Assembly (NCBI GenBank): GCA_019057475.1
Contig: DXJO01000026.1
Coordinates: 1 to 58,194, forward strand
Direction: 5' to 3'
Source of the DNA: Candidatus Thorarchaeota archaeon
GTDB taxonomy: Archaea > Asgardarchaeota > Thorarchaeia > Thorarchaeales > Thorarchaeaceae
Length of the DNA: 58,194 nucleotides
The position numbers and the translations under genes were made by a program. This document shows, piece after piece, positions 1-58,194 of this stretch (position 1 is the first letter of the stretch; each line of letters opens with the position of its first letter). Under the pieces are notes generated by a model, which worked only from the letters and a program-made list of their open reading frames with translations, did no database searches and was not told the origin of the DNA.

Positions 1-154
1 GTTTTCTGTCTCCGTCCAACTGGCGGCGACCGAATTACGTGGAGGCCCTAGCAATCAGCATTGAACATCCACACCACTCAATCCTGAGCATATGTTATAA
101 CCACCTACAAAATGTCCAAGATTGTGCAAATTGTTGGCAGCTGTTGCATGCCCT
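1..154 (-). mobile_element. Left part of a non-autonomous IS607-like element (tnpB internal-deletion derivative), truncated by the window start
   Basis: Reverse complement aligns with 57927-58081 with 15 differences in 155 columns (hand count). On the minus strand it reads AGGG|CATGCAACAG, end motif TTGCACAA-N5-GACA, TATA-like TTATAA, ATGCTGATTGCTAGGGC, then GGTCGCCGCCAGTTGGACGGAGACAGAAAAC. Confidence 0.8.
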
Positions 155-178
155 ATTTCATTTGCCGCTGTTTCGTGG

Positions 179-598
179 CTAGCCTATAGTCTTGCCCACG
201 AAGGTTACCGCAACCCGTCGACTTCTCGGTCCATCGCATTCGACGAATAGAATCCTCTGCCAAGTACCCAGAGTCAGTCTGCCAGATTTGACGGTCACGG
301 TTTCGGAGGGACCTAGCAACGACGTCATTATGTGCGAATGGGCGTTGTCGTCAACTCTGTCGTGTTGATATCCTGCATGTGGTGGGACAATCTTCGACAG
401 TTGCATTTCGATATCTTGCATCAGTCCGCTCTCAGCTTCATTGATAGTCAATCCTGCAGTCGTATGAATACTAAATACAGTCAGGATTCCATCCTCCGCA
501 TTATTCTCAACAACCCAGGACTGAACCATCTCCGTTATGTCAATGACTTCCACGGACCTGTTCGATTTGATTTCAACTTGACCATGCACTACATTCAT
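179..598 (-). CDS. yjbQ: YjbQ/UPF0047 family protein
   Basis: HTTAGLTINE, HD..DDNAHSH, LGTWQRILFVECDGPR motifs. Start trimmed to ATG at 598 because the longer ORF overlaps ahcY. Confidence 0.9.
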   Translation of the reverse strand: MNVVHGQVEIKSNRSVEVIDITEMVQSWVVENNAEDGILTVFSIHTTAGLTINEAESGLMQDIEMQLSKIVPPHAGYQHDRVDDNAHSHIMTSLLGPSETVTVKSGRLTLGTWQRILFVECDGPRSRRVAVTFVGKTIG

Positions 599-696
599 CG
601 TTATTTGGCTCCAAATGGACTCACACTGCGCCTTTCTTCGTAGCGTAGCTAGAGATACACCTTTCTGATTTACGAAGGGCTCCCCAAGATGCGCGC

Positions 697-1962
697 CTAG
701 GTTCCCTCGGCATAAGACTTCGCGTACGCTGCTTGTTCCTTGGTCCATCTGTCAATACTGATGCCCATTGTCTTGAGCTTGTAGGCAGCAATCTGCTTGT
801 CCATCTCAACAGGGAACTCATAGACGGCTGGCTTGAGATTCTTGCCATGTTTGGCCATCCAAATCATTGCGTACAATTGAGCTGAGAAACTCATGTCCAT
901 TACTGATGAACTATGTCCCTCAGCCGCCGTCAGGTTGACTAGACGCCCCTCACCGAGCAAGTAGATTACACGACCGTCTTTCATCGTGTATTCATCCAGC
1001 GCATGACGAACTCGCCTTTTCCCAGTGCTCAATGCAACCAGGTCTGGCTCATTGATCTCGACATTGTAGTGACCCGAATTGCCCAAGATTGCACCGTCTT
1101 TCATGACCTTCATATGAGCGCCGGTGATCACATCCTTCATGCCTGTTACAGTAAGGAACAAGTCGCCCTCTTTCGCCGCGTCCGTCATCGGCATCACCCG
1201 ATATCCGTCCATCCGTGCCTGGAGTGCTTTCACTGGGTCTACCTCAGTCACAATCACGTCCGCGCCAAGCCCTTTCGCCCTCATTGCAAGACCTCGACCA
1301 CAGTAACCGTACCCTGCAATAACGACAGTCTTGCCAGCAATCAATATCGCTGAGGCTCGAAGGACTCCATCGAAGGAGCTCTGACCAGTCCCGTAGACGT
1401 TGTCGAACATGTGCTTGGTTTCTGCATCGTTGACTGCCATGATGGGGTACTTCAACGCGCCATCATCAGCCATCGCACGGACTCGAATCACTCCGGTTGT
1501 CGTTTCCTCGGAACCGCCGTAGAGCTTTGGTATCAATTCTTGGTGTTTGTTATGTATAGTGAAGATCAGGTCGGCTCCGTCGTCTAATGTCAGTGTAGGT
1601 TCCATCTTGAGTGTCTGGTCGATGCACCAGTAGTACTCCTCAGTATTCAGGCCGTACCACGCATAGACTGGGACGTCATTTGCAGCCAGTGCAGCTGCAA
1701 CCTTATCGTTAGTTGAGAGTGGATTGCACCCAGACCATGCGACCTCAGCGCCCGCTGCCTGCAGGGTCTCAACGAGGACTGCCGTTTCCTTTGTCACGTG
1801 TAGACAGCCTGCAATCCTCATTCCCTTGAGTGGCTTTTCCTTAGCATACTTTTCTCTGAGATGCATGAGCACAGGCATGTGCTTCTCTGCATACTCGATC
1901 AACATCCTGCCTTCCTTGGCAAGTCCAATGTCTTTGACTTTGTAATTAGCCATTGTCATCAC
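697..1962 (-). CDS. ahcY: S-adenosylhomocysteine hydrolase
   Basis: CLHVTKET, GCNPLST, EETTTG, KHMFDNVYGTGQS, GYGYCGRG, GRLVNL..AEGH motifs. True start may be ATG 1959 or 1953. Confidence 0.97.
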   Translation of the reverse strand: MMTMANYKVKDIGLAKEGRMLIEYAEKHMPVLMHLREKYAKEKPLKGMRIAGCLHVTKETAVLVETLQAAGAEVAWSGCNPLSTNDKVAAALAANDVPVYAWYGLNTEEYYWCIDQTLKMEPTLTLDDGADLIFTIHNKHQELIPKLYGGSEETTTGVIRVRAMADDGALKYPIMAVNDAETKHMFDNVYGTGQSSFDGVLRASAILIAGKTVVIAGYGYCGRGLAMRAKGLGADVIVTEVDPVKALQARMDGYRVMPMTDAAKEGDLFLTVTGMKDVITGAHMKVMKDGAILGNSGHYNVEINEPDLVALSTGKRRVRHALDEYTMKDGRVIYLLGEGRLVNLTAAEGHSSSVMDMSFSAQLYAMIWMAKHGKNLKPAVYEFPVEMDKQIAAYKLKTMGISIDRWTKEQAAYAKSYAEGT

Positions 1963-2042
1963 ACGGGCGCGGTGCTTAGCATACCTTATATGAATCCTAC
2001 ATCATATTCTAGAATCAAATGCACCATATCACGGTGTTAGTC

Positions 2043-2975
2043 ATGCAATCCATTACAGAGAGCGAAAAGGAACTTCTGAGGCTCCTCCTACAGGATTCCA
2101 GATCCAGTTTGGGAAGCTTGGCAGAGAATCTCGGGAAGGGACGCAATTGGGTTACTCGTGCCATCAAACGTCTTGTGCGCAGGAAGGTTCTGCAGGCCTA
2201 CGTGACGGTTTTCGACCCAGCTCAAGTCTACGCTGATCGGAGCACAATGTTGCTTATCAAGACCAATCCACGAGAACTTGATGTGAGCCGGGGACTCCTT
2301 GAGATGCCTGAGCTTGAGTCGCTTGACGGAATCTCGGGTGAGCACTCACTGCTGGGCCTTTTCCGTCTGCGAGGGGCCGGCGGGTTCGAAGCCTTTCTGG
2401 ATGAAGTGGACAGGGTGGTGGCCAAGTCAGGAGCCGAGAAGTACCAGCTCGTCCAGGTTCTGACCACATACAAAACTCATGGGTTCAATCTTGAAAATCA
2501 GAAGGTTCGCCCACCGCCAGTGTCGTCCAAAGATTGGGAGCTGATGAAGGCTGTCTACAGACACGCACCATCCGAAGAGCGTCCCTTTCCTCTCTCTCAA
2601 AGCGAGGTTGGCAAGAAAATGAAGCCGTCATTGAGCCAGCCTGCAGTATCCAAGGCAATGAAACGGCTCGAAACCCGTGGAGCAATTGCCGGTTACTCTG
2701 TGGATATTGGATTCAGACACCTTGGATTGCCCATCAAGTTCTTCCTACAAATCAAGTCGAAACCGGGAACGATAGCACAGACTGCGCACGAGATAAGCAA
2801 GATGAATGCAGTATGGGATCTGCACCGAACAAGCGAAGACCTAAGCCTCTTTGCTACTATTCGAACTAGGAGTGTAGATGGCTACAATCGGTTCCTTAGA
2901 GATCTGTACGAGAACGTAGACATCATTGACACTCAGTCACAGATTTCGCTTGAAGAGTGGTTCGTACCTGCATAG
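2043..2975 (+). CDS. Lrp/AsnC family regulator with two tandem HTH+RAM units, divergent from ahcY
   Basis: Two HTH segments (LLQDSRSSLGSLAENLG; LSQSEVGKKMKPSLSQPAVSKAMKRLE), each followed by an AsnC-like domain. Confidence 0.8.
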   Translation: MQSITESEKELLRLLLQDSRSSLGSLAENLGKGRNWVTRAIKRLVRRKVLQAYVTVFDPAQVYADRSTMLLIKTNPRELDVSRGLLEMPELESLDGISGEHSLLGLFRLRGAGGFEAFLDEVDRVVAKSGAEKYQLVQVLTTYKTHGFNLENQKVRPPPVSSKDWELMKAVYRHAPSEERPFPLSQSEVGKKMKPSLSQPAVSKAMKRLETRGAIAGYSVDIGFRHLGLPIKFFLQIKSKPGTIAQTAHEISKMNAVWDLHRTSEDLSLFATIRTRSVDGYNRFLRDLYENVDIIDTQSQISLEEWFVPA

Positions 2976-3003
2976 GCATTGTTTCAGCCGAAACACCTCC
3001 GCA

Positions 3004-3585
3004 CTAACCTGACGAAGGTGGGCGTTCGCCAAGCCAGATTCGCTCCCAGAGGTTTTCACCCCTGTTTCTGATGAGAATGATCAACCAGAGAACAATCATG
3101 ATCACATTGAGGAACACATTTGCTCTTAGAAACCCCAGCTGAATATCCCCCTCAAAAGCAAACAGAAGCACGAGTGGTCCCACGATGTGGAGAGGATCGA
3201 CCCATGGCCAGAATACAGGGTTGTACCAATGCATAGGAATGTCAACCAGGACATGGAAGAGTGCTCCTAACATGCATGAAAGCACAAGCAATGGAGTGAT
3301 TCTGCAGGCATTATTCAATTGTTCGCGATCAACTCCAAACAGACCTGAGATGATTGGCGGATACAGGAACCTGGTCACGAGTACAGCAAGGAGTGTTCCA
3401 AGAGTGAGGACTCCCACTAGGCTGTGTAGAACAAGGTGATCAAGCAGATTCGGAAAAAAGAAGAATAGGATTAGAACCTCTACATCCGGGATGACTGAAC
3501 CCACAATGAGTCCGGGGAATGACAATCGCCGGTCAGCCTTTGATAGACCGTAACCCACAGGGTAGTGCATTGGCGTGAAGGGCAT
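3004..3585 (-). CDS. DUF4184-like membrane-bound metal-dependent hydrolase
   Basis: MPFTPMH start, GSVIPDVE, LHS and HVLVD motifs, several hydrophobic segments. Confidence 0.75.
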   Translation of the reverse strand: MPFTPMHYPVGYGLSKADRRLSFPGLIVGSVIPDVEVLILFFFFPNLLDHLVLHSLVGVLTLGTLLAVLVTRFLYPPIISGLFGVDREQLNNACRITPLLVLSCMLGALFHVLVDIPMHWYNPVFWPWVDPLHIVGPLVLLFAFEGDIQLGFLRANVFLNVIMIVLWLIILIRNRGENLWERIWLGERPPSSG

Positions 3586-3686
3586 GATTGGTCAACTCAC
3601 GGCTCTTGCCTCAATGGGATTGGTTTGACCCTTTTCAATACTCTTAAAGACCATAAATTGAATTGACACTTTCAAGGTGGAATAGA

Positions 3687-4205
3687 TTGGGTCTATACGA
3701 GTTCGATAGCAAAATGCCAAAGGTGCACGCAAAGGCCTACGTTTCTCCAAGAGCATCGTTGATTGGGGATGTTGAGGTCGGAGAAGACTCCAGCATTTGG
3801 GAATTTGCAGTCCTTCGTGCTGATATGAACTACATCCGCGTGGGCAAAGGCACGTCCATTCAAGACAACGCGACCGTTCATACAACCTTCACTAACCCCG
3901 CAATAATTGGCGACTACGTCACCGCGGGACACAACTGTGTGATTCATGCCTGCGAGATTGGAAACCGTGTTGTAGTTGGTATCGGTGCGATAGTCCTTAC
4001 TGGGGCGAAGGTAGGCGATGACTGTGTCATTGGTGCCGGATCGGTCGTCACTGAAAACGCGGTAATCCCTCCCAACTCACTAGTTCTAGGTATTCCTGGA
4101 AAGGTCAAGAAGGACGTTCCCGAAGGGTTGAAGGACGCCTTCATGGTTGGTGCGGAGCTCTACATCGAGCTTGGCAGGAAACACAAAGAGGCATTATCAG
4201 ACTAA
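3687..4205 (+). CDS. Gamma-class carbonic anhydrase / hexapeptide-repeat protein
   Basis: LIGDV, VLRAD, IQDNATVH, GH..VIHAC with three His ligands. TTG start at 3687 follows AAGGTGGA. Confidence 0.9.
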   Translation: MGLYEFDSKMPKVHAKAYVSPRASLIGDVEVGEDSSIWEFAVLRADMNYIRVGKGTSIQDNATVHTTFTNPAIIGDYVTAGHNCVIHACEIGNRVVVGIGAIVLTGAKVGDDCVIGAGSVVTENAVIPPNSLVLGIPGKVKKDVPEGLKDAFMVGAELYIELGRKHKEALSD

Positions 4206-4300
4206 GATCAACAGGTTTCCTGCAAACCCCCAAAAGATTCGAAAAAATCTCCCGCTAATGACAATCTATTTCTGTCGAAAGACCGTATATTCTAGGGGAA

Positions 4301-6571
4301 TTGCACTTGACAAGCGCTCAGAAGTGCAGGGCCCGGGCGGTCCTGCTTCTTGTACTCTTATTCACTTTGTTTCTCAGTTCACCATCCGCTGCAGAAGCAG
4401 TCGGTACAGGACACGGTGGCTTGTCTTCACCTGATGCTATCCTCAACAGCAATTTCACCATTTGGGGTTTCAGTGGTCATGGAGGAGACCAAGATGTATT
4501 GAATATGCATATACTTGCTGAAGCAGGTATCAAAATTGTGCATACAGAAAGCTGGTGGAATGATACCGTGAACAACCCCCTTGACATCTACTACAACGAA
4601 ACCTTCAGGACCTATGCAAAAGGAGTACTGAACTTCAGCCTTGGGCTCACAGGAGAAACTGCAGTAATAGACACTGACGACCTCTGGGCTGTGACACTCG
4701 GGGATGAGGAACCTGCATGGATCCACTATGTTGACATATTCTCAAGTCTTTCACCAGAGATTGCGAAGTACAGCGACATCTACTATGCTGAAACGGGATA
4801 TCAGCTCAAGCCAATTTATGACACGAATCTGACGGAATGTGGGGTCTTTGTGGAGTGGTTGAATGAGAAGAGTGTCTGGGTCTATAACTACATGCACGAC
4901 TATGTGAAATCCTTGATGCCACACGTGCTAGTCTTCCAACCTGTGATGATGCATCCTGTTTGGGGTCTACCTTATGAACTGTGTGCCCCGTACGAGCTCA
5001 AGGCTGACGGATATGGAACGGGCTGCTACTATGCAGTTCAGGATCCGTGGCTACTCTACGATACAACCCGGAGATATAAGACATCAATGCCGGAGAGTGA
5101 GTTTCACATGACCATATGGGGCACGATATGGGACTTCGTCAACGAGGCTGGTGATGGCCTGTACTACAAGGAGGGAAGCTATGAGCAGATGAGGCGCGAA
5201 ACCTGGATATCCTACCTCTCAGGAGCTGATGTTCTAACTTGGTTCGACTGGGGTCCACAGGACAACAACAGCTATACCTGGCGTTGGGGGCACGAGCGTA
5301 CAGACATAATGGGTCGACGCAACTGGAAGTACGTTGACAACTTGGCGGGGCAGCTAGAGAAACTGCCTGTTCTGAAGTCTGAACCTGAGGTGCTTGTGAT
5401 TGGCACTGGCTATCAGACTGGTGCGCCCATGCAGAGCATCGCTGAAGTAGGCCTATTCACGGAATGCGACTTGGTCAACCAGAGGTGTTTCGCCAAGGCA
5501 GACATCGACCTCTCGAACTACTCGTTGGTCATGGTGACTGATGGGTGGTACTATGATGAAACAGTCAGGAAGCTCAACGCCTTCGTGGAGGAGGGCGGCA
5601 ATGTGATGTTTCTGGGAGGGATACGGAGTGGTGAGGGTCCAGAAGACGAAACTGAAGCTTTCCAGATTGAGCGGAACTCAACGGAGCCGTGGTGGTGGGT
5701 CGAAGGACATTTCAGAATCAACGTGACCAAACCAAACATCTTGGATTTGGAGCTCTACCAGGAAGCACCCCTTCACGCGACCCACACAATTCAGGCGGAG
5801 AATCTCTCAAGCGACTATCACCCAATCAGCGGCTTCTATCAAGTGGACGAAAACGGAACCCCCGTAGAAATTAATGACTATCCCCTACTTCTCTACCATA
5901 ACGAGTCAAGTCCTGACAGTGGTTGGGTGATGTATTTCGGAGCAGTGCACTCTTCTACTGACTTAGGAGCAACGTGGGAAACATACGACAGGGAGAAGCA
6001 GCCAGATCTGTGGTACTTGTACAGGGAGGTTGTCAAAGCCTTTGCCAAGTTCCTAGGCATCACCAACTCAATCTCGGCAAATGAAACAGAGGACATGCTC
6101 ATCACACAAGGAGTCATCGAAGACGGCACAATCATTGCGGGAATCCATAATTTTCGAAACGAGAGCCGTAACCTGACCTACAAGCTCGATCTGTCGCAGT
6201 TCGGCTTTCCTGCTGGAAACTACTGGGTACACTCACTGGACGAAAACAGGTTAGAAGGTCAGTATGAAACAAACGGACAGATCCTAAGCTTTGGAACGCA
6301 TGTTGTGGCAAATGGAACACGGCTGTTTCTAATCTCTGAGGACAGACCCGAACCCGATTACTCCATCCAGATATTCCCACATATCCCAAGTATCGCAGAC
6401 GTGACTCCAACCACTACGACAACCACACCCGCTACGTCGACGCAGACACCCGCAACTACAGCAGATGACATATTCGGTGTCTACATTATTGTAGGAGGCA
6501 CGGTCATTGGGCTCTCAGTCTTCACCATAGTCATTGTCATGAAGAAGAGAGCAAAGCAGCAACCTCCGTAG
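4301..6571 (+). CDS. Secreted, membrane-anchored protein, possibly glycoside-hydrolase-like
   Basis: N-terminal signal peptide, GDEEP motif, a domain resembling the beta-galactosidase trimerisation fold (KLNAFVEEGGNVMFLGG), Thr-rich linker, C-terminal TM helix plus basic tail. Function is inference. Confidence 0.6.
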   Translation: MHLTSAQKCRARAVLLLVLLFTLFLSSPSAAEAVGTGHGGLSSPDAILNSNFTIWGFSGHGGDQDVLNMHILAEAGIKIVHTESWWNDTVNNPLDIYYNETFRTYAKGVLNFSLGLTGETAVIDTDDLWAVTLGDEEPAWIHYVDIFSSLSPEIAKYSDIYYAETGYQLKPIYDTNLTECGVFVEWLNEKSVWVYNYMHDYVKSLMPHVLVFQPVMMHPVWGLPYELCAPYELKADGYGTGCYYAVQDPWLLYDTTRRYKTSMPESEFHMTIWGTIWDFVNEAGDGLYYKEGSYEQMRRETWISYLSGADVLTWFDWGPQDNNSYTWRWGHERTDIMGRRNWKYVDNLAGQLEKLPVLKSEPEVLVIGTGYQTGAPMQSIAEVGLFTECDLVNQRCFAKADIDLSNYSLVMVTDGWYYDETVRKLNAFVEEGGNVMFLGGIRSGEGPEDETEAFQIERNSTEPWWWVEGHFRINVTKPNILDLELYQEAPLHATHTIQAENLSSDYHPISGFYQVDENGTPVEINDYPLLLYHNESSPDSGWVMYFGAVHSSTDLGATWETYDREKQPDLWYLYREVVKAFAKFLGITNSISANETEDMLITQGVIEDGTIIAGIHNFRNESRNLTYKLDLSQFGFPAGNYWVHSLDENRLEGQYETNGQILSFGTHVVANGTRLFLISEDRPEPDYSIQIFPHIPSIADVTPTTTTTTPATSTQTPATTADDIFGVYIIVGGTVIGLSVFTIVIVMKKRAKQQPP

Positions 6572-9073: not shown

Positions 9074-9105
9074 AAAAGGGAGAGGGCGGGGGCTGTGCCC
9101 CCACC
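9074..9105 (-). terminator. GC-rich hairpin plus pyrimidine/U tract downstream of fadD
   Basis: Minus strand GGTGGGGGC-ACA-GCCCCCGCC followed by CTCTCCCTTTT. Confidence 0.65.
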
Positions 9106-9118
9106 TGAGGTATTGCTA

Positions 9119-9224
9119 CCGTTCATTGTAAGTTGTACAAAGTTGGACACCGAAGTCCAGTACGTCCAGAAAACGGCACTGGACTACTCCGTGAGGAACC
9201 TTCGCAGGTGTGTCATATTCCTCA
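9119..9224 (-). ncRNA. Putative structured RNA inside the mini-element
   Basis: TTTATAT box at 9253-9247, about 29 nt before hairpin 1 (TGAGGAA/TTCCTCA with inner CCT-GCGA-AGG). Hairpin 2 is AGTCCAGTGC/GTACTGGACT at 9185-9154. Confidence 0.55.
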
Positions 9225-9307
9225 GAGATCAATGTCGTATTGCTCCATATAAAGCCCACAATAGAATTGTCCACGTATGTCCAACTTTGCACCATCTGTT
9301 TACTACC
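9119..9307 (-). mobile_element. Complete 189-bp non-autonomous IS607-like element
   Basis: Bounded by GG at both ends (AGAG-GG-TAGTAAACAG ... AATGAAC-GG-TAGCAAT). Subterminal inverted repeat 9135-9150 / 9277-9292 (14 of 16). Right-end motif TGTC-N5-TTGTACAA is shared with the element at the window end. Removing it restores the fadD end AGA GGG TAG next to its terminator. Confidence 0.75.
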
Positions 9308-11036
9308 CTCTCTTCTTGAGTTCTTCTTCTCGCAGCTGTCGTCTCAATATCTTCCCGACGGCAGTCATTGGTAGCGAGTCTACAATCGCGACCTCACGAG
9401 GACGCTTGTATCCAGCTAGCCGCTCCTTAGCCCACGCAACGATCTCTTCCGGCGTTGCGGTTTCGCCGTCCTTTAGGACCACATACGCCTTCACGTACTC
9501 ATTGGTTGGGTCATCCTCTCGTGGCAATCCAATCACACCTGCCATCTTGATCTTGGGGTGCTCATACAGAGTATCCTCAACTTCCCGCGGGTACGCCTTC
9601 AAACCACCGACATTGATCATGTCCTTTTTCCTGTCCGAAATGGCAAAGAAGCCTTCTTCGTCCATGTGACCAATGTCACCTGTGAGGAAGTACCGCCTGC
9701 CACTAAATTCTCGGAACACCTCAGCTGTTTCTTTGGGTTTGTTGTAGTATCCTTTCATAACCTGCGGTCCACTGAGAGCTATCTCTCCAACCTCACCCTG
9801 GGGCAGCTCTTTGGATCCTGTTTCAATGTCGACGATTGTCGCATATGTGTTACTGATTGGCATTCCAATTGAACCAAACTTGCGAGTGGTCCTGGATGGC
9901 GGATTTCCGTGGGTCAACGGCGATGTTTCCGTCAGGCCATAGCCCTCAAACAAGGTGCCGCCTGCCACTGACTCAAAGAGTTTGGCCAATTCTGGAGGCA
10001 GAGGTGCGGCTCCAGACGCACAGACCTTGAGGCTTGAAAGGTCGAAATCTTTCACCTTTGGGTGATTTGCGATTCCTGCATATAGCGCAGGAACACAGTG
10101 CAGTATTGTGCCCTTGTTTTTCGCTATTGCTGCAAGCAAATCTGTCATTGGTGGTTTCCCTGCTCTTGGATCGGGGATGCAGATCACCCTATTGGCTTGA
10201 CGAACACAGGTTATCATTGTCAGCGTCAGACCGTAGCTGTGATACCACGGAAGGGCGCCCACGTATACTTCCTCACCTTCTATCAGGTTGTTAGGAGGCT
10301 CAAGTTGAGCCCACTCGTGCATCTGCTCCACATTGCTGGTCAAGTTATAGTGGGTCAACTCCGCACCTTTCGGTGTGCCTGTTGTCCCGCCAGTGTACAT
10401 AATCAAAGCTGCATCTTCTTTGGGGTTGACTGACACTTCAGGTGCCTTCGCCTCGTAGTTGGCCATGATGTCCTTGTAGAAGACGGTGATGTCCTCGTCG
10501 TAGGACGGACTCTTGGGGATTTTGCCTAGGAGACCTCCTATTACGGCTTTCATCTTCGAAATGAATTCCGCGGCGCTACAGACAACCACAGTCTTAACAT
10601 CGGTGCCCTTTATGGCTTCGTATGTTAATGGTGTGAACTTTTGATGGTCAAAGCAAAACACCGCGACAGCACCAGAATCCTTCAACTGAAAGTTCAGTTC
10701 ACGTGCCGTGTACGACGGATTGCACGTAACCGTGATTCCTCCGGCTTTCAAGATGCCAAAGAACACAGGAGGATAATGGGGCATGTTGGGTAAGAAAATC
10801 GCGACCCTATCGCCCTTCTTGATTCCTTTACTAGCAAGGAAATTAGCAATCCTATCAGCGCTCTCTCTCACCTGCGAGTAGGTCTGATTATTGCCGGCCC
10901 ACATTGTGTATATCTTTTCGCCGTACTTGTCGGCAGTCCTATCAAGCATTGCGAAGAGGGGTTCCTCTGGAAGCTCCAGAGATTTTTTCACTTTCTCTGG
11001 CCACTTTCCGCCTTTGTGCCATAACATTTCTTCCAT
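9303..11036 (-). CDS. fadD: Long-chain fatty acid/acyl-CoA ligase (AMP-forming)
   Basis: YTGGTTGTPKG, EGYGLTETSP, TGDIG, DRKKDMI..GG, LPMTAVGKILRR. Confidence 0.93.
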   Translation of the reverse strand: MEEMLWHKGGKWPEKVKKSLELPEEPLFAMLDRTADKYGEKIYTMWAGNNQTYSQVRESADRIANFLASKGIKKGDRVAIFLPNMPHYPPVFFGILKAGGITVTCNPSYTARELNFQLKDSGAVAVFCFDHQKFTPLTYEAIKGTDVKTVVVCSAAEFISKMKAVIGGLLGKIPKSPSYDEDITVFYKDIMANYEAKAPEVSVNPKEDAALIMYTGGTTGTPKGAELTHYNLTSNVEQMHEWAQLEPPNNLIEGEEVYVGALPWYHSYGLTLTMITCVRQANRVICIPDPRAGKPPMTDLLAAIAKNKGTILHCVPALYAGIANHPKVKDFDLSSLKVCASGAAPLPPELAKLFESVAGGTLFEGYGLTETSPLTHGNPPSRTTRKFGSIGMPISNTYATIVDIETGSKELPQGEVGEIALSGPQVMKGYYNKPKETAEVFREFSGRRYFLTGDIGHMDEEGFFAISDRKKDMINVGGLKAYPREVEDTLYEHPKIKMAGVIGLPREDDPTNEYVKAYVVLKDGETATPEEIVAWAKERLAGYKRPREVAIVDSLPMTAVGKILRRQLREEELKKRG

Positions 11037-41569: not shown

Positions 41570-44500
41570 CTACTCCCTGAGCATCTCTTCTATCTGGTCG
41601 TAGAAGCTCTTCTCACGCCACCATCGGAGATCACGTGCTCCCGTTGGGCAGATGGAACAGCATGCTCCACATCCTTCACATGCAAGCTCGTTGGTGACGC
41701 TCTTCTTTACACCCGGCGATACTTCCACCATTGAAACTGCGTCGTAGGGGCAAATCTCCGAATAGTGGCATAGGTCACATCCAACACAGAGATCTTCGTC
41801 CACATCGGCTGTCAAAAGCTCGATGTTCACCGTACCGAGATTGAGCGGCGCACAGGCTGCGCTGGCAGCACCACGTGCCTGGTTGATTGAGTCTGACACG
41901 TTCTTTGCGTAGGTTGCACCCAAGAAGATGCCCGGGACAGTGGTTTCTACTGGTTTGAACTTCATATGGACCTCAAGCAGGAATCCATCTTGTCCTCGGT
42001 TGATTCCTAATGCCTTGGTGAGTTCGTTGACATCATGGGGTGCCTCCAAGCCAAGTGCAAGCACAACCATGTTGGATCGTATCTTGAAGGTCTCCTGGGA
42101 AAGAGTATCATATACTGTTACAATGGCCTCATCAGCATCAGGAGCTTTCTCAACGGTAACCGGTTTCTCTCTTATCCAGCGCAGATAGCTGACGCCCTTC
42201 TGACGGTTCTCCCGCCACATCTCCTCCATGTTGTTGGCGAATGGGCGGATGTGCTCCTTATAGGCCGAGAACACTCTGATGTCCGGGAACATCTCCTTCA
42301 GCTCGTGCTGCATAGTTATTACTGCAGAACAACACGCCCTCGAGCAGTATCTATTCCCCTCTCCTGGGCTCTGTCTTGAACCAACGCAGTGTATAAACAC
42401 CGGATTCTTTGGTGGCTTCTTGAGTTCTCCATTTCTTATCATGCGCTCGAGCTGGAGTGTTGTAATGACTCCTGGGACTTCCTCCCAACCGTACTCTCCC
42501 TTCTTTGGATCGTAGGTATCTGTGCCCGTTGTGATGACCATTGAGCCAATCGTGTGAACTTCCTGCTCTCCAGTTTCTGTATTCTGAATTGTTATCCCGT
42601 AGTTACCGTAGGACCCCTCCCTCAATACTGGCTTCGAGTTGAGCAGAACCTTGATCCGTTTCTCTTTCTCAACGCGTGCTGTGAGGTCGTCCACGATCTC
42701 TTGGGCGCTTTCCATCTTGGGGAATAGGTTGTATAGATCATTCAGCCTACCGCCAAGCTTGTTCTCCTTCTCAACAAGGATGACATCGAAGCCCTTCCGA
42801 GCAATGTCAAGCGCGGCACTCATTCCTGAAACCCCACCACCAACAATCATCGCAACTCGAGTCACGTCTACTGACTTGACAGGTACAATTTCATTATTGA
42901 TGGCCTTGGCGACGCCGGAACGAATCATGTCCTGCGCCTTCTCCTGACGAACATCTGGAGGGTCGTTCGCATTGACCAGCGCAATCATCTCTCTTAGCCC
43001 TACGGGCCCGACAAGATAGTAACCTGATATGCCAGCAGCCTCTAGTGCACGTCTGAAAGTGTCTTCATGTTGGAGTGGTGAGCATGAACCAACGACCACG
43101 CGATTCAGCTTGTGCTCTTTGATGGCTTCTGTAATGAACTCCTGACCGGGGTCGCTGCACATGAAAATATAGTCAATACTGTAAGCAACATTCGGAAGGT
43201 GACTAGCCCATTGTGCTAGGCCGGGCGAGTCTATTACGTTGCCAATGATTCCTCCGCAATGACAGATGAACACGCCAACTCTCGGCTCTTCTCCGACCTC
43301 CAGAGGTGGAACTGCTTCAGGTACGGGGGGGTGTGGGAGAGGTAGTATTGACTGTGCAGCCATAGCCGCACCCTTGCCCTCATTGACTGTGTCTGTGCCA
43401 TCCTTGGGTCCGTGGATGCATCCAGCCATGTATATGCCATCGCGGGTGGTCTCGAGAGCGCCGGAATTCGGGTTCTTCTCCTTCACCCAACCCGTTTCAT
43501 CGAGCTCGATGCCCAAGACCTTCGCAAGTTCCTCACTACCTTCAGCAGGCCTGAAGCTCGAGTTGAGAACGACCATGTTCACTTTGATCTCTTGAATCTC
43601 GCCTTTTTCGGTATCCTCTAGCTTCACCATGAGGTCGTGAGTGTCAGGGTCTTCATTAATCTCAGCAATCCTGCCGCGGATGAAGTCAATGTCCTGGTTG
43701 TGCTGCGAGTCCCAGAGGAACTCCTCCAGCAGTTTCCCGCAAGTGCGCATGTCCATGTAAGTGTAGATGATTTTACAGTGCTCCTTGGAATAGTGCATAC
43801 GAGTGACTTGGGCCAGCTTCAGTCCAAAAGAACAGCAGACCCTATTGCAATGATGACTATACCCCTCGATGTTTTCCCGAACGTCTCTTGACCCAACACA
43901 GTTCACGAACATGATGGTTTCAGGTTCCCTGCCATCAGAGGGACGAACCATGTGTGCATCAGTCGGTCCTGTTGGATGTGTCTGACGATCGTACTCTAGA
44001 GTTGTTACGACATTCGGAAACACACCGTAGCCGTATTCCGCATAGTCGGTTGGCTGATATTCCTCAAAGCCTGCAGCGTTTATAATTGCCCCAACGTTCA
44101 GGTCGTACTCCTTATCCTCGTCGTCGTACATGATGCAGTCCTGCGGACACACTGACGCGCATGTCCCACAGCCAATGCACGACTCTCGGTCGATGGCAGC
44201 CAACAGAGGAATCTGCTGTGGGAAATTCATGTATATCGCCTTGCGCAGCGATAGTCCCATGTCGTAATGGTTCGGGACCTCCACTGGGCAGGCCGCGATA
44301 CAGAGGCCGCAGCCAGTGCATTTGTTCTCGTCAACGTAGCGGGCTTTCTTGTGAATCGTCAGAGTGAAGTCGCCCGCTTTTCCTTTGACTTTCTTTACCT
44401 CTGAGAGAGAGTGTATTGTTATGTTCAGATGTTTGCCCACGAATGAGGTGAGTGGAGTCATGACGCAGGCGCTACATTCGAGCGCAGGAAATATTTTGTA

Positions 44501-44671
44501 GATGGCGACATAAGCCCCCCCGATGCTCACTGTCCTCTCAATCAGATGAGCATGATGACCGCCGTCAGCGAGGGCGAGGGCGGCGCTGATTCCTGCCATT
44601 CCAGCACCGATTATGGCAACGTCAGTGGGCTTGGGCTTTGCCGCTGACTTCTTTGTTGCCTTGCTGACCAT
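41570..44671 (-). CDS. hdrA: Second large HdrA-like flavoprotein (two FAD modules, no MvhD)
   Basis: GAGMAG, YKIFPALECSAC, CVGSRD..CNRVCC, GVFICHCG, GGGVSG, CVGSR..YCSRACC, ferredoxin motifs. Confidence 0.88.
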   Translation of the reverse strand: MVSKATKKSAAKPKPTDVAIIGAGMAGISAALALADGGHHAHLIERTVSIGGAYVAIYKIFPALECSACVMTPLTSFVGKHLNITIHSLSEVKKVKGKAGDFTLTIHKKARYVDENKCTGCGLCIAACPVEVPNHYDMGLSLRKAIYMNFPQQIPLLAAIDRESCIGCGTCASVCPQDCIMYDDEDKEYDLNVGAIINAAGFEEYQPTDYAEYGYGVFPNVVTTLEYDRQTHPTGPTDAHMVRPSDGREPETIMFVNCVGSRDVRENIEGYSHHCNRVCCSFGLKLAQVTRMHYSKEHCKIIYTYMDMRTCGKLLEEFLWDSQHNQDIDFIRGRIAEINEDPDTHDLMVKLEDTEKGEIQEIKVNMVVLNSSFRPAEGSEELAKVLGIELDETGWVKEKNPNSGALETTRDGIYMAGCIHGPKDGTDTVNEGKGAAMAAQSILPLPHPPVPEAVPPLEVGEEPRVGVFICHCGGIIGNVIDSPGLAQWASHLPNVAYSIDYIFMCSDPGQEFITEAIKEHKLNRVVVGSCSPLQHEDTFRRALEAAGISGYYLVGPVGLREMIALVNANDPPDVRQEKAQDMIRSGVAKAINNEIVPVKSVDVTRVAMIVGGGVSGMSAALDIARKGFDVILVEKENKLGGRLNDLYNLFPKMESAQEIVDDLTARVEKEKRIKVLLNSKPVLREGSYGNYGITIQNTETGEQEVHTIGSMVITTGTDTYDPKKGEYGWEEVPGVITTLQLERMIRNGELKKPPKNPVFIHCVGSRQSPGEGNRYCSRACCSAVITMQHELKEMFPDIRVFSAYKEHIRPFANNMEEMWRENRQKGVSYLRWIREKPVTVEKAPDADEAIVTVYDTLSQETFKIRSNMVVLALGLEAPHDVNELTKALGINRGQDGFLLEVHMKFKPVETTVPGIFLGATYAKNVSDSINQARGAASAACAPLNLGTVNIELLTADVDEDLCVGCDLCHYSEICPYDAVSMVEVSPGVKKSVTNELACEGCGACCSICPTGARDLRWWREKSFYDQIEEMLRE

Positions 44672-44737
44672 GCTCTGCATTCTCCGGGTTGTGGCTACAG
44701 CGACGGCGGGAACTAGCGGGGTGATATAATCTTTCTG
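44604..44737 (-). repeat. hdrA promoter and 5' end (intact copy of a 134-bp direct repeat)
   Basis: Aligns without gaps to 46000-46133 with 19 mismatches (hand count). Confidence 0.92.
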
Positions 44738-45920: not shown

Positions 45921-45999
45921 CTAGTACTCCTCTTAAACAGAAAGCCAATGCATGTACTAGGGGAAGCTTTGCGAAAAGGTTTTCCATGGACTTCAACCC

Positions 46000-46133
46000 G
46001 CACCGATTATGGCAACGTCAGTAGGCTTGGACTTTGCCGATGACATCTTGGATGCCTTGCTGACCATGTTCTGTGTTCTCCAAACTATGGCTACAACGAC
46101 AGCGGGAACTAGCGGGGCGACACAATCTTTCTG
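46000..46133 (-). pseudogene. Decayed duplicate of the hdrA promoter and N-terminus
   Basis: Reads MVSKASKMSSAKSKPTDVAIIGAG*; the TATA box TTATAT is changed to TTGTGT. Confidence 0.9.
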
Positions 46134-52057: not shown

Positions 52058-52122
52058 ATTTCTGCAATCTTACAGCACAGGAAATATAACTGGATTCAGG
52101 CATCAGGTTATTGGTCATCAGG

Positions 52123-52571: not shown

Positions 52572-53570
52572 ATGAGAGCGCTTGTCACTGCCCCTTTCAC
52601 AGATGATGGTCTGAACACGCTCCGTGCTTCTGGTTTGAATGTAGACTATCAGTGCTGGCTTGAAACCGGCAAGTTACATCTAGGTGACTCGCTCCTGAAG
52701 GTCATCAATAAGGGCGGATACAAAGTAGTTGTTGTCGAGGGCGATGAAGTCAAAGAGGAGGTAATCGAGGGTAGCAACCTGAAGCTGATAGGTTGTGTCA
52801 GAGGTAACCCTCGGAACATCGCAGTTGCTGAAGCGACAGCCAAGGGTATTCCGGTCATCACAGCCCCGGGGAGGAACGCAAGAGCCGTGGCTGAGCTGAC
52901 AGTGTGCCTTATGCTCAATCAAGCTCGAAATATCACGGCAGCAGATAGGTTGCTCCAACGCGAGTTCCTGGTCGATGACTTCGGGGACTTTGCGGGCATG
53001 TACAAGTCGACCATGGGCTTCGAGCTAAAAGGACGAACAATCGGACTGATTGGCCTGGGCCAAGTCGGATTCAGTGTGGCTAAGATTCTACAGTCCTTTG
53101 ACGTGAGTTTGCTCGTCACAGACCCCTACATCGATGACAGCAGAATCGCAGAGGTGGGCGCCGAGAAAGTTGCGCTTGATAATCTCTTGAGAAGGTCAGA
53201 TGTAGTATCAGTGCATTGCTTGCCAACTGAAGAAACAAACAGGATGTTGGGCAAGAGGGAATTCGAGCTCATGAAGAAGACTGCAGTATTCATCAACACG
53301 GCGAGAGCATCTATCACTGATGAATATGCATTACTTGAAGCACTCAAATCGGGCGCCATAGCTGGCGCAGGACTAGATGTATTTTCAATGGAACCCGTAG
53401 ACTGCGACAATATGTTCCTAGAACTTGATAATGTCACTGTCACCCCACATATCGGCGGAAACACGGCTGATACTGTTGAACGGCAGTCTGAGATGTTGGC
53501 TAATGATATTCGCACGTATCTAGAGGGTGGAATACCTCAACATATCGTAAACCCAGAGGTATTGAAGTAG
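52572..53570 (+). CDS. D-isomer-specific 2-hydroxyacid dehydrogenase family protein
   Basis: PGRNARAVAE, GLIGLGQVG, INTAR, DVF..EP, TPHIGG. Confidence 0.9.
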   Translation: MRALVTAPFTDDGLNTLRASGLNVDYQCWLETGKLHLGDSLLKVINKGGYKVVVVEGDEVKEEVIEGSNLKLIGCVRGNPRNIAVAEATAKGIPVITAPGRNARAVAELTVCLMLNQARNITAADRLLQREFLVDDFGDFAGMYKSTMGFELKGRTIGLIGLGQVGFSVAKILQSFDVSLLVTDPYIDDSRIAEVGAEKVALDNLLRRSDVVSVHCLPTEETNRMLGKREFELMKKTAVFINTARASITDEYALLEALKSGAIAGAGLDVFSMEPVDCDNMFLELDNVTVTPHIGGNTADTVERQSEMLANDIRTYLEGGIPQHIVNPEVLK

Positions 53571-53583
53571 ACGGAGGAATTGG

Positions 53584-55083
53584 ATGGTCGTAGCAGCGAT
53601 TGATGCTGGAACCACTGGTGTTCGGTGTATGCTGGTGGATAAATCGGGAGCAGTAATCGGAATCGGAAGAGAATCTTGGGGATGTGTAACTCCTTCTGAC
53701 CTTGACATAGCAAAGGAGATTGACACTTCGCTGTACTGGAGAAAGATATGCCGAGTAACGCATGAGGCGCTTAAGTCGGGAGGAAAATCGTCGTCGAAAC
53801 TGGAAGCTATTGCCACGACCAGCCAGAGGATGGGCATGATAATACTGGATGCAGATGGAAAGGAGCTGCGAGGTACTCCCAATATCGATGCTCGTGGTGC
53901 ATTGACACAGTATGTTGTGGAAGAGTCAGTGGGAGATCGATTCCAAGAGCTGACTGGGTGTTGGCCCCCAATGATGTTTGCTCCTGCAAGGCTCGCCTGG
54001 TTTGAGGAAGAGGAATCAGATGTGTATGAGGCCATCGCTCGTGTCCTGCCAATAGGCGATTGGATCACATACAGACTCTGCAACGCATTCGTAACAGACC
54101 CCTCGTCAGCCAGTGCCACTGGTTTTCTTGATGTTCGAAGCCGGAAGTGGAGTTCTGAGGTGGTTGATGCCTTGAATCTTGAGATGAATATCCTGCCAGA
54201 GATACATGATGCAGGGATTGTTGTGGGGGAGATTACAACTACAGCGGCGAAGGAAACCGGCCTTCCTTCAGGATTACCCGTGGTCCAAGGAGGTGCCGAC
54301 ACTCAGTGTGCGCTTCTTGCTGCAGAAGCCAACGTTGATGAAATTACAATCGTGGCTGGCAGCACATCCCCCATGATGTTGATCACGGAGAAAGCTGTCT
54401 GTACTCAGGGTCAGAAGATATGGACTGGATGTCATGTTGTCCCTAGTAGATGGGTCTTGGAGAGCAATGCCGGTCTTACGGGATCGTATATTGAATGGGC
54501 AGTCAGGTTCTTGTGTGAACGATCTGAAAACCCAGAGCAATGTTTCACTAATACTCTAAGCAACCTGTCTGATATCGTGGCGCATGTTTCTCCCGGAAGC
54601 AACGAAACGTATGCTGCTCTCGGGCCAACCATAATGGACTGCCATCGGTTCACTGATGTACGACAAGCGGTATTGTCTTTCCCCCAGCCCGCATTACCGC
54701 AAGTCATTCCCCTTGACTCGGCAAGTTTTCTTCATGCAGTACTAGAGAATATCGCCTACTCTGCCAGGGGGAACTGTGAGCAATTGGAGGAGCAAGCGAA
54801 AGTCAGCGCTATCAAGACAATCGGTGGAATGACCAAATCAACCGTCTGGGGGCAGCTACTGGCCAACGTTCTGAATCGATCTGTCCGAATTCCGGATCAG
54901 TCCGAGGGAAGTCTCTTGGGGGCAGCCATTTGCGCTGCCAAGGGCGCAGGTTGGTTTTCAGACTTGATGGAGGCGTCAGAAGCCATGGTCCAGTGGCATG
55001 CTCCTATTGTACCGGATGAACGCGCAGCACGATACAAACCATACTACTCAAGATGGAAAGAAATCTGGTACCGAGGTGATTGA
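53584..55083 (+). CDS. FGGY family carbohydrate kinase (LsrK-like)
   Basis: AIDAGTTGVRC, ATTSQR.G, PNIDARG, GGADTQC, AGST, AVLENIAY, GGMTKS..W.Q.LANV. Confidence 0.88.
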   Translation: MVVAAIDAGTTGVRCMLVDKSGAVIGIGRESWGCVTPSDLDIAKEIDTSLYWRKICRVTHEALKSGGKSSSKLEAIATTSQRMGMIILDADGKELRGTPNIDARGALTQYVVEESVGDRFQELTGCWPPMMFAPARLAWFEEEESDVYEAIARVLPIGDWITYRLCNAFVTDPSSASATGFLDVRSRKWSSEVVDALNLEMNILPEIHDAGIVVGEITTTAAKETGLPSGLPVVQGGADTQCALLAAEANVDEITIVAGSTSPMMLITEKAVCTQGQKIWTGCHVVPSRWVLESNAGLTGSYIEWAVRFLCERSENPEQCFTNTLSNLSDIVAHVSPGSNETYAALGPTIMDCHRFTDVRQAVLSFPQPALPQVIPLDSASFLHAVLENIAYSARGNCEQLEEQAKVSAIKTIGGMTKSTVWGQLLANVLNRSVRIPDQSEGSLLGAAICAAKGAGWFSDLMEASEAMVQWHAPIVPDERAARYKPYYSRWKEIWYRGD

Positions 55084-55721
55084 GCATGTATAAGGAAACA
55101 AAGGAAGAACTGCTAGAGATATGCACAGAGATGGTACGAAGAGACCTCGTGGAGGGGTCGGCTGGCAATGCAAGTGCTCGTGTCGACGATCACGTTGTGA
55201 TCACCCCGAGCTCAGTCCGCTATGTTGAGATGGCGGCTGAAGACATGATGGTGATTGACATGGATGGCAAAGTCATAGAGGGCGACAGAAACCCGAGCGT
55301 AGAGTCGCCTATGCATCTTGAAGTCTACAAGAACCGCAAGGACGCTCGAGCTATTGTACACACTCACAGTATCTATGCCTCAGCATTGACCCTTCTGAAC
55401 AGAACTCTTCCGCCAATACTAGACGAGATTGTTCCCAAGCTTGGTGGAGAGATACGTATTACGCAATACTCCATGCCAGGCACCAAAGAACTGGGCCAGA
55501 GGGTTGTAAAAGCTATGGACATGAGAAGTGCTGCTCTGATAGCGAACCACGGTGCTCTTTGCTGCGGCGGGTCATTGCGCGAAGCACTTGACGTTGCTGT
55601 GCTTCTGGAGCGTGCATGCAGAATCTACATGATTGCACTACAAGCTGGCAAACCCTCACAGCTCCCTGAGGATGTTGTAGAGGATGAAGCGACACTCTGG
55701 GAGATGATGAAGGGGTACTGA
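55080..55721 (+). CDS. Class II aldolase (fuculose-1-phosphate aldolase-like)
   Basis: GNASAR, ITPS, PSVE..MH, VHTHS, NHG. Confidence 0.9.
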   Translation: MSMYKETKEELLEICTEMVRRDLVEGSAGNASARVDDHVVITPSSVRYVEMAAEDMMVIDMDGKVIEGDRNPSVESPMHLEVYKNRKDARAIVHTHSIYASALTLLNRTLPPILDEIVPKLGGEIRITQYSMPGTKELGQRVVKAMDMRSAALIANHGALCCGGSLREALDVAVLLERACRIYMIALQAGKPSQLPEDVVEDEATLWEMMKGY

Positions 55722-55730
55722 GGTGCGCGA

Positions 55731-57506
55731 ATGAACGGGTACATGGGACAGCTCCTTGTGGTAGATTTGACCAGAGAGAAGATAAGCGAGATTCCCTTGG
55801 ACCGGGGAATCATCAAGCAATTCCTTGGTGGGGCTGGCTATGCCTGCAGGCTGCTCTACGACATGATAGATGCATCGTGCGATCCTCTGAGTCCTGACAA
55901 TATGCTCGTATTCATGACTGGGCCACTTACTGGAACAATGGCCCCGTGTACAGGTCGTCATGTTGTGTGTGGGAAGTCCCCCCTTACGGGCTATTGGGGC
56001 GAGTCGCATTCTGGCGGCCATTTTGGTGCGCATCTGAAGTTCTCAGGTTACGATGGACTGGTAGTCAAGGGCAGGGCCAAGAGCCCAGTCGTGCTTCACA
56101 TTGATGAAGGCGCACTCACGTTTCTTCCTGGCGGCGACCTCTGGGGAACAACCACAGATGTGGCTCAGGAGAGGCTTCGGAAGGACTTGGGTCCTGTGAA
56201 AGTCGCATGCATTGGTCCCGCGGGCGAAAATCTCGTTCGCTATGCCAGCATTATGAATGCAGAACGTGCAGCCGCAAGATGCGGCTTGGGTGCCGTCATG
56301 GGGTCGAAGAATCTCAAAGCCATTGCAGTCGGAGGGAGCAAGGAAATTGCACTTAGTGACGCTGAGGAATTCACTGAGATTGCTAAGAAATCCTCAGCAA
56401 TACTCCGTGAGATGATGTCTAACTTGAGTCAGTCTGGAACGGCAATGTATGTAGACATTGCAATGATGTTCAACGATATGCCCATCAAGTACTTCCAAGA
56501 GGTGGATTTCGAGTCTGACCTGATAAATGACAAGGCACTGGGCGAGATTCTAACAGGTCGCACCGCCTGCCATTCATGTCCTATAGGATGCGGTCGCAAG
56601 GTGTCACTTCCAGAGCATAATCTCAAGAACATCGGCGGTCCCGAATACCAGACCATTGCATCCCTTGGGTCAAACCTTCTGATTTCAGATATCCGCGCAA
56701 TTGCAGTCATGAATCGGCTCTGTAATCAATATGGATTAGATACCATAAGCACCGGTGGTACATTGGCTCTTGCAATCTCACTGCAGGAGCTCGGGAAACT
56801 AGATCACAATCTTGAATGGGGGGACTCTGATAGGGCGATTGAGTTGATTCATGCAATCGCTAACCGTGATGGATTTGGCAATGAGCTGGCCGAGGGTTCA
56901 ATGCGCTTAGCTGCCAAGTATGGTGCTGAAGATGCTGCTCTCCATGTCAAGGGGCTTGAGATACCTGGTCATGATCCCCGAGCATTTGCGGGCATGGCAA
57001 CTGTGTATGCTGTAGCCGCCCGAGGGGCATCCCATTTGGAAGGGGACATATACAGCATTGATATGGGAGCAGATGTTCGCGATCTTGGAATTGTCGCTTC
57101 TGACCGATTGGATGATGAGAACAAGGGCGTTACTGCAGCAAAAGCGCAGGACTACAGAGCCTTTTTCGACTCGGTGATTATGTGTCACTTCGCGTTTGTG
57201 CTTCCGCAGACCTTGCTGGACTTACTCAACACTGCACTCGGGACATCTGCTAATCTCAAGGACATCCTTAAAATCGGATCAAGACTAGTTACTCTGAAAC
57301 GTCTATTCAATCTCAAGTGTGGTCTGCAACCTCAGGAGGATACACTCCCCTCACTATTCTCTCAACCATTGCCAGATGATGTGACCGACGACTTTGTACC
57401 GGATTTGGACCGGCAGCTGGACGATTACTATTCCTATAGAAGATGGGACCGAAAGACTGGGCGGCCCACAGAAGAGGCTCTGCAGGAACTTGAGCTTGAT
57501 TATTGA
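55731..57506 (+). CDS. aor: Tungsten-dependent aldehyde:ferredoxin oxidoreductase family
   Basis: KSPLTG, CIGPAGENLV, GAVMGSKNLKA, CHSCPIGC, GPEYQT, GLDTISTG, HDPR. Confidence 0.93.
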   Translation: MNGYMGQLLVVDLTREKISEIPLDRGIIKQFLGGAGYACRLLYDMIDASCDPLSPDNMLVFMTGPLTGTMAPCTGRHVVCGKSPLTGYWGESHSGGHFGAHLKFSGYDGLVVKGRAKSPVVLHIDEGALTFLPGGDLWGTTTDVAQERLRKDLGPVKVACIGPAGENLVRYASIMNAERAAARCGLGAVMGSKNLKAIAVGGSKEIALSDAEEFTEIAKKSSAILREMMSNLSQSGTAMYVDIAMMFNDMPIKYFQEVDFESDLINDKALGEILTGRTACHSCPIGCGRKVSLPEHNLKNIGGPEYQTIASLGSNLLISDIRAIAVMNRLCNQYGLDTISTGGTLALAISLQELGKLDHNLEWGDSDRAIELIHAIANRDGFGNELAEGSMRLAAKYGAEDAALHVKGLEIPGHDPRAFAGMATVYAVAARGASHLEGDIYSIDMGADVRDLGIVASDRLDDENKGVTAAKAQDYRAFFDSVIMCHFAFVLPQTLLDLLNTALGTSANLKDILKIGSRLVTLKRLFNLKCGLQPQEDTLPSLFSQPLPDDVTDDFVPDLDRQLDDYYSYRRWDRKTGRPTEEALQELELDY

Positions 57507-57838
57507 GCCTTGAGTAGATGCTGCAGCTTGAGCAGGTCTCTTGTTGAGCCCTTTGCTACTATCCTGCCTCCCATGAATGCGCGCATTGCAGAGAGAGATC
57601 CATCCAAGACCTGTAGTATTGTGACACTATCAGTTGTCACAGTCATGTCAGGATTTTCAGGCATGCCTTCTTCAACTGTTGCAGTGCCCTTCTCAAATCG
57701 CATCTTGACATCAAATTCCAGGTCTTTGAATGACATAACCAGAACTCTATCGAAGTTTTCGAAGCGTTTCTGTAGCTTGGGTTCCCCGATTCTGCCAACC
57801 ATATTCTGCAGAGCTCGTATGATATCTTCCTTCGTCAG
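57500..57838 (-). CDS. SCP2 domain protein (paralogue of 52123-52455); probable CTG start
   Basis: AMRAFMGGRI...G...DLLKLQHLL. The extension MTKEDIIRALQN from CTG 57838 aligns with the paralogue's N-terminus. Confidence 0.85.
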   Translation of the reverse strand: MTKEDIIRALQNMVGRIGEPKLQKRFENFDRVLVMSFKDLEFDVKMRFEKGTATVEEGMPENPDMTVTTDSVTILQVLDGSLSAMRAFMGGRIVAKGSTRDLLKLQHLLKAQ

Positions 57839-57926
57839 GAAACTTCACACTCCTTTTCCTATCACGTCTTGTGTACTGTGTGCCCGTTGTACTGGGGTCT
57901 CTCTAGTATTGCAATCCCCTCAGAAA

Positions 57927-58194
57927 AGGGTATGCAACAGCTGCCAAGAACTTGTACAATTCTAGACATTTTGTAGGTGTTTATAACATACTGCTCAGGA
58001 TTGAGTGGTGTGGACGTTCAATGCTGATTGCTAGGGCGTGCATGAAATTTGGTCGCCGCCAGTTGGACGGAGACAGAAAACGCCTGTGGAGAGGACGTGA
58101 AACTAGTCGCAGATTCAGCAGGATCTGCAGAGCAGACCTCAATGAATCAGGAACCGAACATCAGTCATGGACATTGATGTCTAGGGTTGTACAA
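57927..58194 (+). mobile_element. Non-autonomous IS607-like element retaining the omega-RNA region, truncated just before its right tip
   Basis: AGGG|TATGCAACAG left end; TTGTACAATTCTAGACA (57952-57968) inverted against TGTCTAGGGTTGTACAA (58178-58194); TTTATAA box; MLIARA start fused to a TnpB-tail-like frame VAASWTETENACGEDV...SMNQEP. Confidence 0.8.
58051..58194 (+). ncRNA. Putative TnpB omega-RNA (right-end RNA) scaffold
   Basis: ACGCCTGTGGAG...GAATCAGGAA signature recalled from tnpB 3' ends. Hairpins GCAGATT/GATCTGC and AACC-ACATCA-GTC/GAC-TGATGT-GGTT. Confidence 0.6.

Follow-up and report, generated by a model that had tools for sequence, protein, structure and literature searches.

Protein-less IS607-type mini-elements with guide-RNA-like scaffolds in a Thorarchaeota genome

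The stretch of DNA studied here (the window) is the whole of contig DXJO01000026.1, 58,194 nucleotides long and designated C6 among the 56 contigs of a 3.34-Mb Candidatus Thorarchaeota genome. It contains three short gene-less elements, designated element 1 (positions 1-150, minus strand), element 2 (9119-9305, minus strand) and element 3 (57931-58194, plus strand). Because the window is an entire contig, elements 1 and 3 are cut by assembly breaks; orthologous empty sites link the former to contig C46 and the latter to contig C13. Elements 1 and 3 are 90% alike and belong to a family of mini-elements (minis) of ~280 bp (family A), while element 2 represents a separate family of 187 bp (family B). 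An earlier prediction, made from the letters of this DNA alone, had described the three as dispersed IS607-like guide-RNA cassettes of a probable Asgard genome. Sequence inspection located all motifs named in this original prediction where it had placed them, including left tips ending in AACAG, the CAA-N5-GACA end motif and its mirrored form at the right end. The Asgard host was borne out by close relatives (92%) of one transposon protein, which come from Candidatus Thorarchaeota. A genome-wide hidden Markov model search detected neither tnpA nor tnpB on this contig.

Each of the three elements is missing from the corresponding position in two to four sister species, and for 24 of 47 insertions of sister species a clean empty site was found in this genome. 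Comparison of filled and empty sites shows that GGG remains at the left junction and that the inserted DNA consists of the element body followed by a terminal GG. The predicted elements are real, but their bounds were corrected from the empty sites: the elements proper begin after GGG, at positions 150, 9305 and 57931, and two of them are truncated by contig ends. All three sites have a GG core and no further target duplication. Across 61 independent sites GGG is almost invariant; at position -4, A is preferred (approximately two thirds of the sites) but not fixed. Consequently, AGGG, which does flank all three window elements, was rejected as a fixed target-adjacent motif, and only its GGG is conserved. 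Of 21 sites that were rebuilt, only two fall deep within a long reading frame. The left tip has a variable first base; a proposed copying of the target base at this position was also discarded, since the association was not significant (p = 0.13 and 0.27, with five A rows mis-registered by three bases). Separately, approximately 9 of the 24 empty sites lack a perfect GGG, possibly owing to escape after excision or to plain drift, and three minis (L037 on contig C118 of G006, L051 and L064) have two flanks mapping to different places in this genome, as in a rearrangement at the element or a mis-assembly.

Element 1 is the left half of a family A mini, whose remainder is contig C46:1-226, and its site is empty in G004 and G005. 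From its host flank AGGG (151-154, minus strand), where GG is the crossover core, the element runs through the left-end repeats (113-131), which are predicted TnpA sites and recur upstream of serine tnpA genes, a TATA box (94-100) that is the promoter of the parent tnpB, a stub of the tnpB start (45-61, MLIARA) and the start of the omega RNA (1-30), truncated by the contig end. Element 3 has the same layout on the plus strand: host flank AGGG (57927-57930), left-end repeats (57952-57968), parent tnpB promoter with its TATA box (57980-57987), tnpB stub (58021-58037) and the omega RNA of an ordinary IS607 TnpB (58052-58194), including right-end repeats at 58178-58194. Its last 14 bases and the guide are located in contig C13, beyond the window, and the site is empty in G003, G004, G005 and G006. 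The stubs of both elements comprise the first 5-6 codons of tnpB plus 3' codons overlapping the omega RNA. Family A is an internal deletion derivative of a tnpB-only IS607 element and still has the promoter, the initial codons and a complete omega RNA. This parent is present on contigs C18, C31 and C7; its TnpB of 404 amino acids (aa) has an intact D-E-D triad and scores 342.8 bits on the NCBIfam model IS607_TnpB (cut-off 350). The helices of the family A omega RNA covary across diverged Asgard copies. Two variants of family A were also observed: a mini with the right-end repeats of the classical IS607 element, indicating an end swap (G000 C24:48638-48913), and further subfamilies with their own 5' hairpin before the omega RNA, which was not seen in the tnpB parent (G000 C52:33248, C35, C41, C56, C9:29724 and C2; C54:163.2-163.5 kb; L054 and L067).

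Element 2 is a complete family B mini of 187 bp including the terminal GG; its site is empty in G003, G004 and G005 and filled in G001. It lies at the stop codon of an acyl-CoA ligase gene (9303-11036), the last codons of which form the host flank AGGG (9306-9309, minus strand). The TAG at its tip (9303-9305) replaces the gene's own stop codon with the same triplet. The left-end repeats (TGGACA, 10 bp apart; 9268-9290) are followed by a TATA box (9246-9253) located 29 nt before helix P1 (9192-9224). P1 pairs the inherited ribosome-binding site, is found only in minis and is paired in 85% of cells. Helix P2 (9186-9191 with 9151-9156) encloses hairpin P3 (9164-9184). The P3 loop CCGTT (9172-9176) is complementary to the terminal AACGG (9119-9123), which is the usual pseudoknot (94.5% paired, with nearly no variation), and the right-end repeats (9132-9149) mirror the left end. 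The host flank at 9102-9118 would be read as the guide, with 9118 as the T of the proposed nuclease motif and the length taken from other IS607 systems. As the original prediction held, the guide is flanking DNA and each insertion therefore brings a new one, and each element has its own TATA promoter, which was inherited from the parent tnpB genes.

The copy numbers of both families are far beyond chance and confirm the dispersal of protein-less copies. The genome contains ~26 left and 27 right ends of family A, with tnpB-bearing copies and halves counted, and 17 complete B-type minis recovered by a covariance model, 13 of which are close to element 2. B-type minis are present in 12 of the 16 genera sampled, and the RNA is absent from 15 of 45 genomes or more at the cut-off used. 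The mini copies are ~89% alike. They are gene-less, keep both ends and occur in many dispersed copies, as do standalone omega RNAs and PATE-like elements. An assignment to IStrons was not supported: the elements have no match in Rfam, hence no group I intron hit, and measure only 187-280 bp. Alignments also showed strand-biased substitution spectra that are opposite in the two families, with G>A dominant in A and C>T in B.

Other arrangements of B-type ends were noted. At L081:700-1740 (G000 C42:98204-99239), a B-type left end is followed by two small genes and then a full B mini; by eye the genes resemble a VapB antitoxin and a PIN-domain VapC toxin, so this may be a composite element with a toxin-antitoxin pair. 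Two different B-type minis (G000 C51:31105 and C9:3897) have a common right flank, perhaps itself another repeat, and the B tip occurs with other subterminal repeats at C29:256660, C50:4486, C51:108870 and C33:814 of G000.

The ends place both families with IS607. Short motifs are directly repeated inside both ends and mirrored between them, terminal inverted repeats are absent, insertion occurs at GG with no duplication beyond the core, and elements with the same ends encode a serine TnpA (helix-turn-helix and resolvase domains). Intact tnpA genes were found in G005 (218 aa), G013 and G024. The TGGACA repeats are carried by the tnpA genes of the family B parents and by both mini families, whereas classical tnpA-tnpB elements with A-type RNA have different repeats. 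One transposase type therefore carries two nuclease-RNA pairs. This accounts for the two scaffolds on related ends that the original prediction had remarked on, and the tnpA and tnpB loci with matching ends that it had proposed to seek exist elsewhere, with the RuvC triad intact.

The right end of family B is common to an element encoding a much larger TnpB (710-760 aa). The full element of ~8.6 kb consists of the left end, serine tnpA, a giant gene on the opposite strand, the large tnpB and the right end; this arrangement with B ends was seen in G000, G013 and G024. The large TnpB has an invariant D-E-D triad, a zinc finger and a fold like that of Cas12f and TnpB, and it scores below all named NCBIfam cut-offs. 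It was found in 22 of 43 genomes of this Asgard family (one copy lies at G000 C42:185.8-187.9 kb), and a search of 157 further Asgard genomes returned no copy. The same genome contains intact TnpB genes of both classes, and the mini scaffolds are homologous to the right-end RNA of tnpB elements with an intact RuvC triad. The suggested link to Fanzors was not supported: pro-Fanzors are defined by a DPG motif at RuvC-I and a shifted RuvC-II glutamate, and the family A parent has DLG and the large TnpB DRG instead of DPG.

The giant gene product (1,750-1,860 aa) has a PD-(D/E)xK-like motif and a RecA/KaiC-like domain in which no clear Walker A is seen; by eye, it also has Cas1-like motifs. Searches of Pfam, NCBIfam, PADLOC, the ESM Atlas and PDB profiles returned nothing, and Cas1 was not confirmed by any library; a structural model (predicted local distance difference test score 58) gave a weak match to a RecA/KaiC-like domain only. 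Five copies of the giant gene are present in the genome, three of them beside a third TnpB class ending in GTTCACTCA. This is the motif given for Asgard aCas1-linked TnpB, and the parent is therefore probably one of the published aCas1 groups, which would mean that IS607 elements carry one or more of the Asgard aCas1-TnpB groups as cargo. The third class (570-600 aa, GTTCACTCA-type ends) was observed at G000 C9:21191-22933, C18:46484-48280, C42:34405-36123 and C54:73675-75405 (L008, L009, L011 and L012). It has a reverse-complement-like motif upstream of the gene, and three copies face the giant gene. A third kind of mini joins a family A left end to the 3' RNA of this class, which has other gene-less copies as well (G000 C39:22004-22370, C40:43435 and the ends of C18 and C21).

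The family B RNA was compared between minis and tnpB-bearing elements. In most of 31 diverged B minis the TATA box lies 29-31 nt before P1, and the expected RNA start therefore falls at this helix. P2 is 98% paired, four of its six pairs show compensatory changes, and RNAalifold recovers it unaided. It has at least 6 bp in 28 of 29 minis and at most 5 bp in 17 of 20 tnpB-bearing ends, the remaining three showing an unrelated 7-bp pairing; no B-type parent with P1 and P2 at its right end was present among these 20. A further candidate helix, P4, with 13 compensatory cells at one pair, was not counted as RNA evidence as it may reflect DNA-level symmetry of the transposase sites. Variation among protein-less copies is roughly threefold lower in the RNA core than in the left end or the leader (0.03 in the core and 0.10 in the left end). 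In a small sample of seven orthologous pairs, from which one duplicate pair had been excluded, 6.7% of positions differed in the core, 12.6% in the left end and 10.0% in the far flank (p = 0.003 and 0.024). The first 16 flank bases, corresponding to the guide, differed at 3.6% against 10.0% in the far flank of the seven pairs (p = 0.026).

The base next to the element was T at 26 of 31 B sites and 50 of 55 sites of other genera, compared with 11 of 30 family A sites (p = 2e-4; background 25%). Family A has the same transposase repeats as B. The same base appears in a second context. A copy of P3 is present at the start of the large tnpB frame, and in 27 of 35 large tnpB loci it is followed by right-end-like sequence whose next 12 bases match the gene's own promoter at 10 or more positions. 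The target of this internal guide is the stretch just upstream of the tnpB TATA box (matches of 11-18 nt); the mean score is 11.6 of 13 for a locus's own promoter and 8.6 for comparisons across loci. The DNA target is preceded by T-G-N-T in 27 of 27 cases. Since the last position of the RNA is C (21) or U (6) where the DNA target has T, this T would be read as part of a motif and not by pairing. As B insertion sites read G-G-G-T, family B probably has the nuclease motif (T/G)GNT and a guide that begins at flank base 2. On the simplest reading, B copies would persist where their empty site can be cleaved by the large TnpB. The B minis themselves may be the internal cassette joined to the true right end via two P3 copies.

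We consider it likely that the minis are non-autonomous IS607 elements that rely on a transposase and a TnpB made elsewhere, and that the loaded nuclease retains the copies. The serine transposase would bind the shared TGGACA repeats and move the minis by GG recombination without a scar, as in IS607 biochemistry, and the inherited tnpB promoter would drive a short RNA through the right end into the flank. The family A RNA would serve as the omega RNA of the 404-aa IS607 TnpB and the family B RNA as the guide of the 710-760-aa TnpB confined to this Asgard family. After excision, the loaded nuclease would cut the empty site and repair from the sister chromosome would restore the element, as established for IS605 and IS607 TnpB; copies with an intact RNA and a fitting motif would consequently last longer. 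Loading in trans, which the original prediction had assumed, is indirectly supported by the core constraint, the P2 covariation and the flank-T preference. In family B, the ribosome-binding site appears to have been folded into P1 and helix P2 to have been gained, so that what was an mRNA leader would have become a dedicated guide gene. More tentatively, and with odds that we put below even, family B minis may be dedicated guide-RNA genes with their own helices, serving a large TnpB that is specific to Thorarchaeota and that additionally represses the promoter of its own gene via the coding-start guide.

Several observations weigh against the main interpretation, that of non-autonomous elements retained by the loaded nuclease. 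No intact cognate tnpA is present in this assembly, the copy on C53 being frameshifted; together with copies only ~89% alike, this makes current mobility doubtful. P3 and the pseudoknot carry little covariation because they are nearly invariant, and related sequences inflate the covariation controls. The low core variation could stem from gene conversion, and the T preference could be a transposase preference differing between A and B ends. In addition, the promoter target has T at -4 and the insertion sites have G.

A plainer explanation is that the minis are remnants like miniature inverted-repeat transposable elements (MITEs), moved in trans by the transposase and carrying an RNA that no TnpB uses any more. 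A promoter and an omega RNA are just what a tnpB deletion leaves in family A, intact tnpA is lacking in the assembly, and some B-type minis have no P1 and P2 or no TATA box. Against this stand an RNA core more conserved than the transposase sites, a fixed promoter spacing and a mini-specific helix with compensatory changes over ~10 genera, as well as TnpB genes of both classes that are intact in the same genome; we regard this explanation as unlikely. Still less probable is a main role of the B RNAs as decoys that adjust the amount of nuclease by drawing the large TnpB away from the promoter-targeting internal guide so that more minis lead to more TnpB. The minis share the tnpB promoter, leader and P3, and the position of the internal guide's target has the geometry expected of a repressor, but use as guides is favoured by the T with which the flank begins and by a guide that is slightly better conserved; a decoy role would be compatible with retention by the loaded nuclease as a side effect. 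A host-domesticated form, for defence or gene regulation, of the distributed RNA-guided system that the original prediction had envisaged is very improbable despite the many copies in many genera and a nuclease travelling with a giant nuclease-bearing partner, because insertions are polymorphic between sister species, at least 15 of the 45 genomes lack the RNA at the cut-off used, and the guides are ordinary flanking DNA that matches the empty insertion site and almost nothing else (20 of 21 had no GGG plus 12-nt target elsewhere in the genome and one had a 12-nt match).

Apart from the elements, the leader and initial codons of an hdrA-like gene (41570-44680) occur twice in the window, at 44601-44737 and 45997-46133; the copies are 85% identical, and the duplicate is a stub 1.4 kb upstream of the gene.

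The supply of guides in trans to TnpB by protein-less elements was proposed earlier from genome layouts; the traces described here, RNA constraint and a nuclease-type base preference at insertion sites, come from natural populations. Family B also lends itself to testing, since it provides a 710-760-aa TnpB that is uncharacterised, a compact scaffold that has its own predicted start site, and a motif derived from natural self-targets. If the proposal for family B is true, three RNA forms built on one core (internal, right-end and mini) would make up a dose-controlled, transposon-borne RNA-guided system in which a 110-nt scaffold and a (T/G)GNT motif are combined with a giant partner that bears a nuclease. 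No publication that deals with TnpB in Thorarchaeota, or with self-repression by TnpB, came up in a literature search of incomplete coverage. The nearest precedent for the latter is the tracr-L autoregulation of Cas9, in which, as Workman reportedly described in 2021, a natural guide has a short match to the nuclease's own promoter. Here, the internal guide is located within the 5' part of the coding sequence of a transposon-encoded TnpB, and the repression is putative.

Among known systems, IS607 elements with TnpB and a right-end RNA (H. pylori IS607, ISXfa1, IS1535 and the C. botulinum IStron; PMC6188088, 10.1101/2023.08.09.552727, 10.1101/2023.11.20.567912) share with the elements of this study the GG core without target duplication, phased short end repeats mirrored at both ends, GGG sites, a right end finishing in CGG and a serine tnpA with an N-terminal helix-turn-helix. 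In contrast to those systems, the minis have no genes, one end type carries two unrelated TnpB/RNA pairs, the family B partner has 710-760 aa, and its proposed motif includes the first flank base. The Asgard aCas1-associated TnpBs (Cas1H-Asgard-1/-2, PMC10691335) are probably the same loci as those reported here, as the giant gene adjoins the GTTCACTCA-ending class described there. In that study aCas1 was proposed as the transposase, whereas the family B parent has a serine tnpA and IS607 ends; mini-elements and an internal guide go unmentioned in its main text. The closest counterparts of the minis are the PATE-like protein-less IS605 elements of Geobacillus (PMC10055086) and the standalone omega RNAs (PMC10691335), which are likewise gene-less, mobilised in trans and provided with an omega RNA for the nuclease of another element. 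They differ in that the minis use IS607 serine chemistry instead of Y1 and an archaeal promoter, and in that B minis have helices which the right end of their parent lacks. Published precedents therefore exist for protein-less elements that carry an omega RNA meant to act in trans; family A is an ordinary new member of this group, and family B is a variant worth testing.

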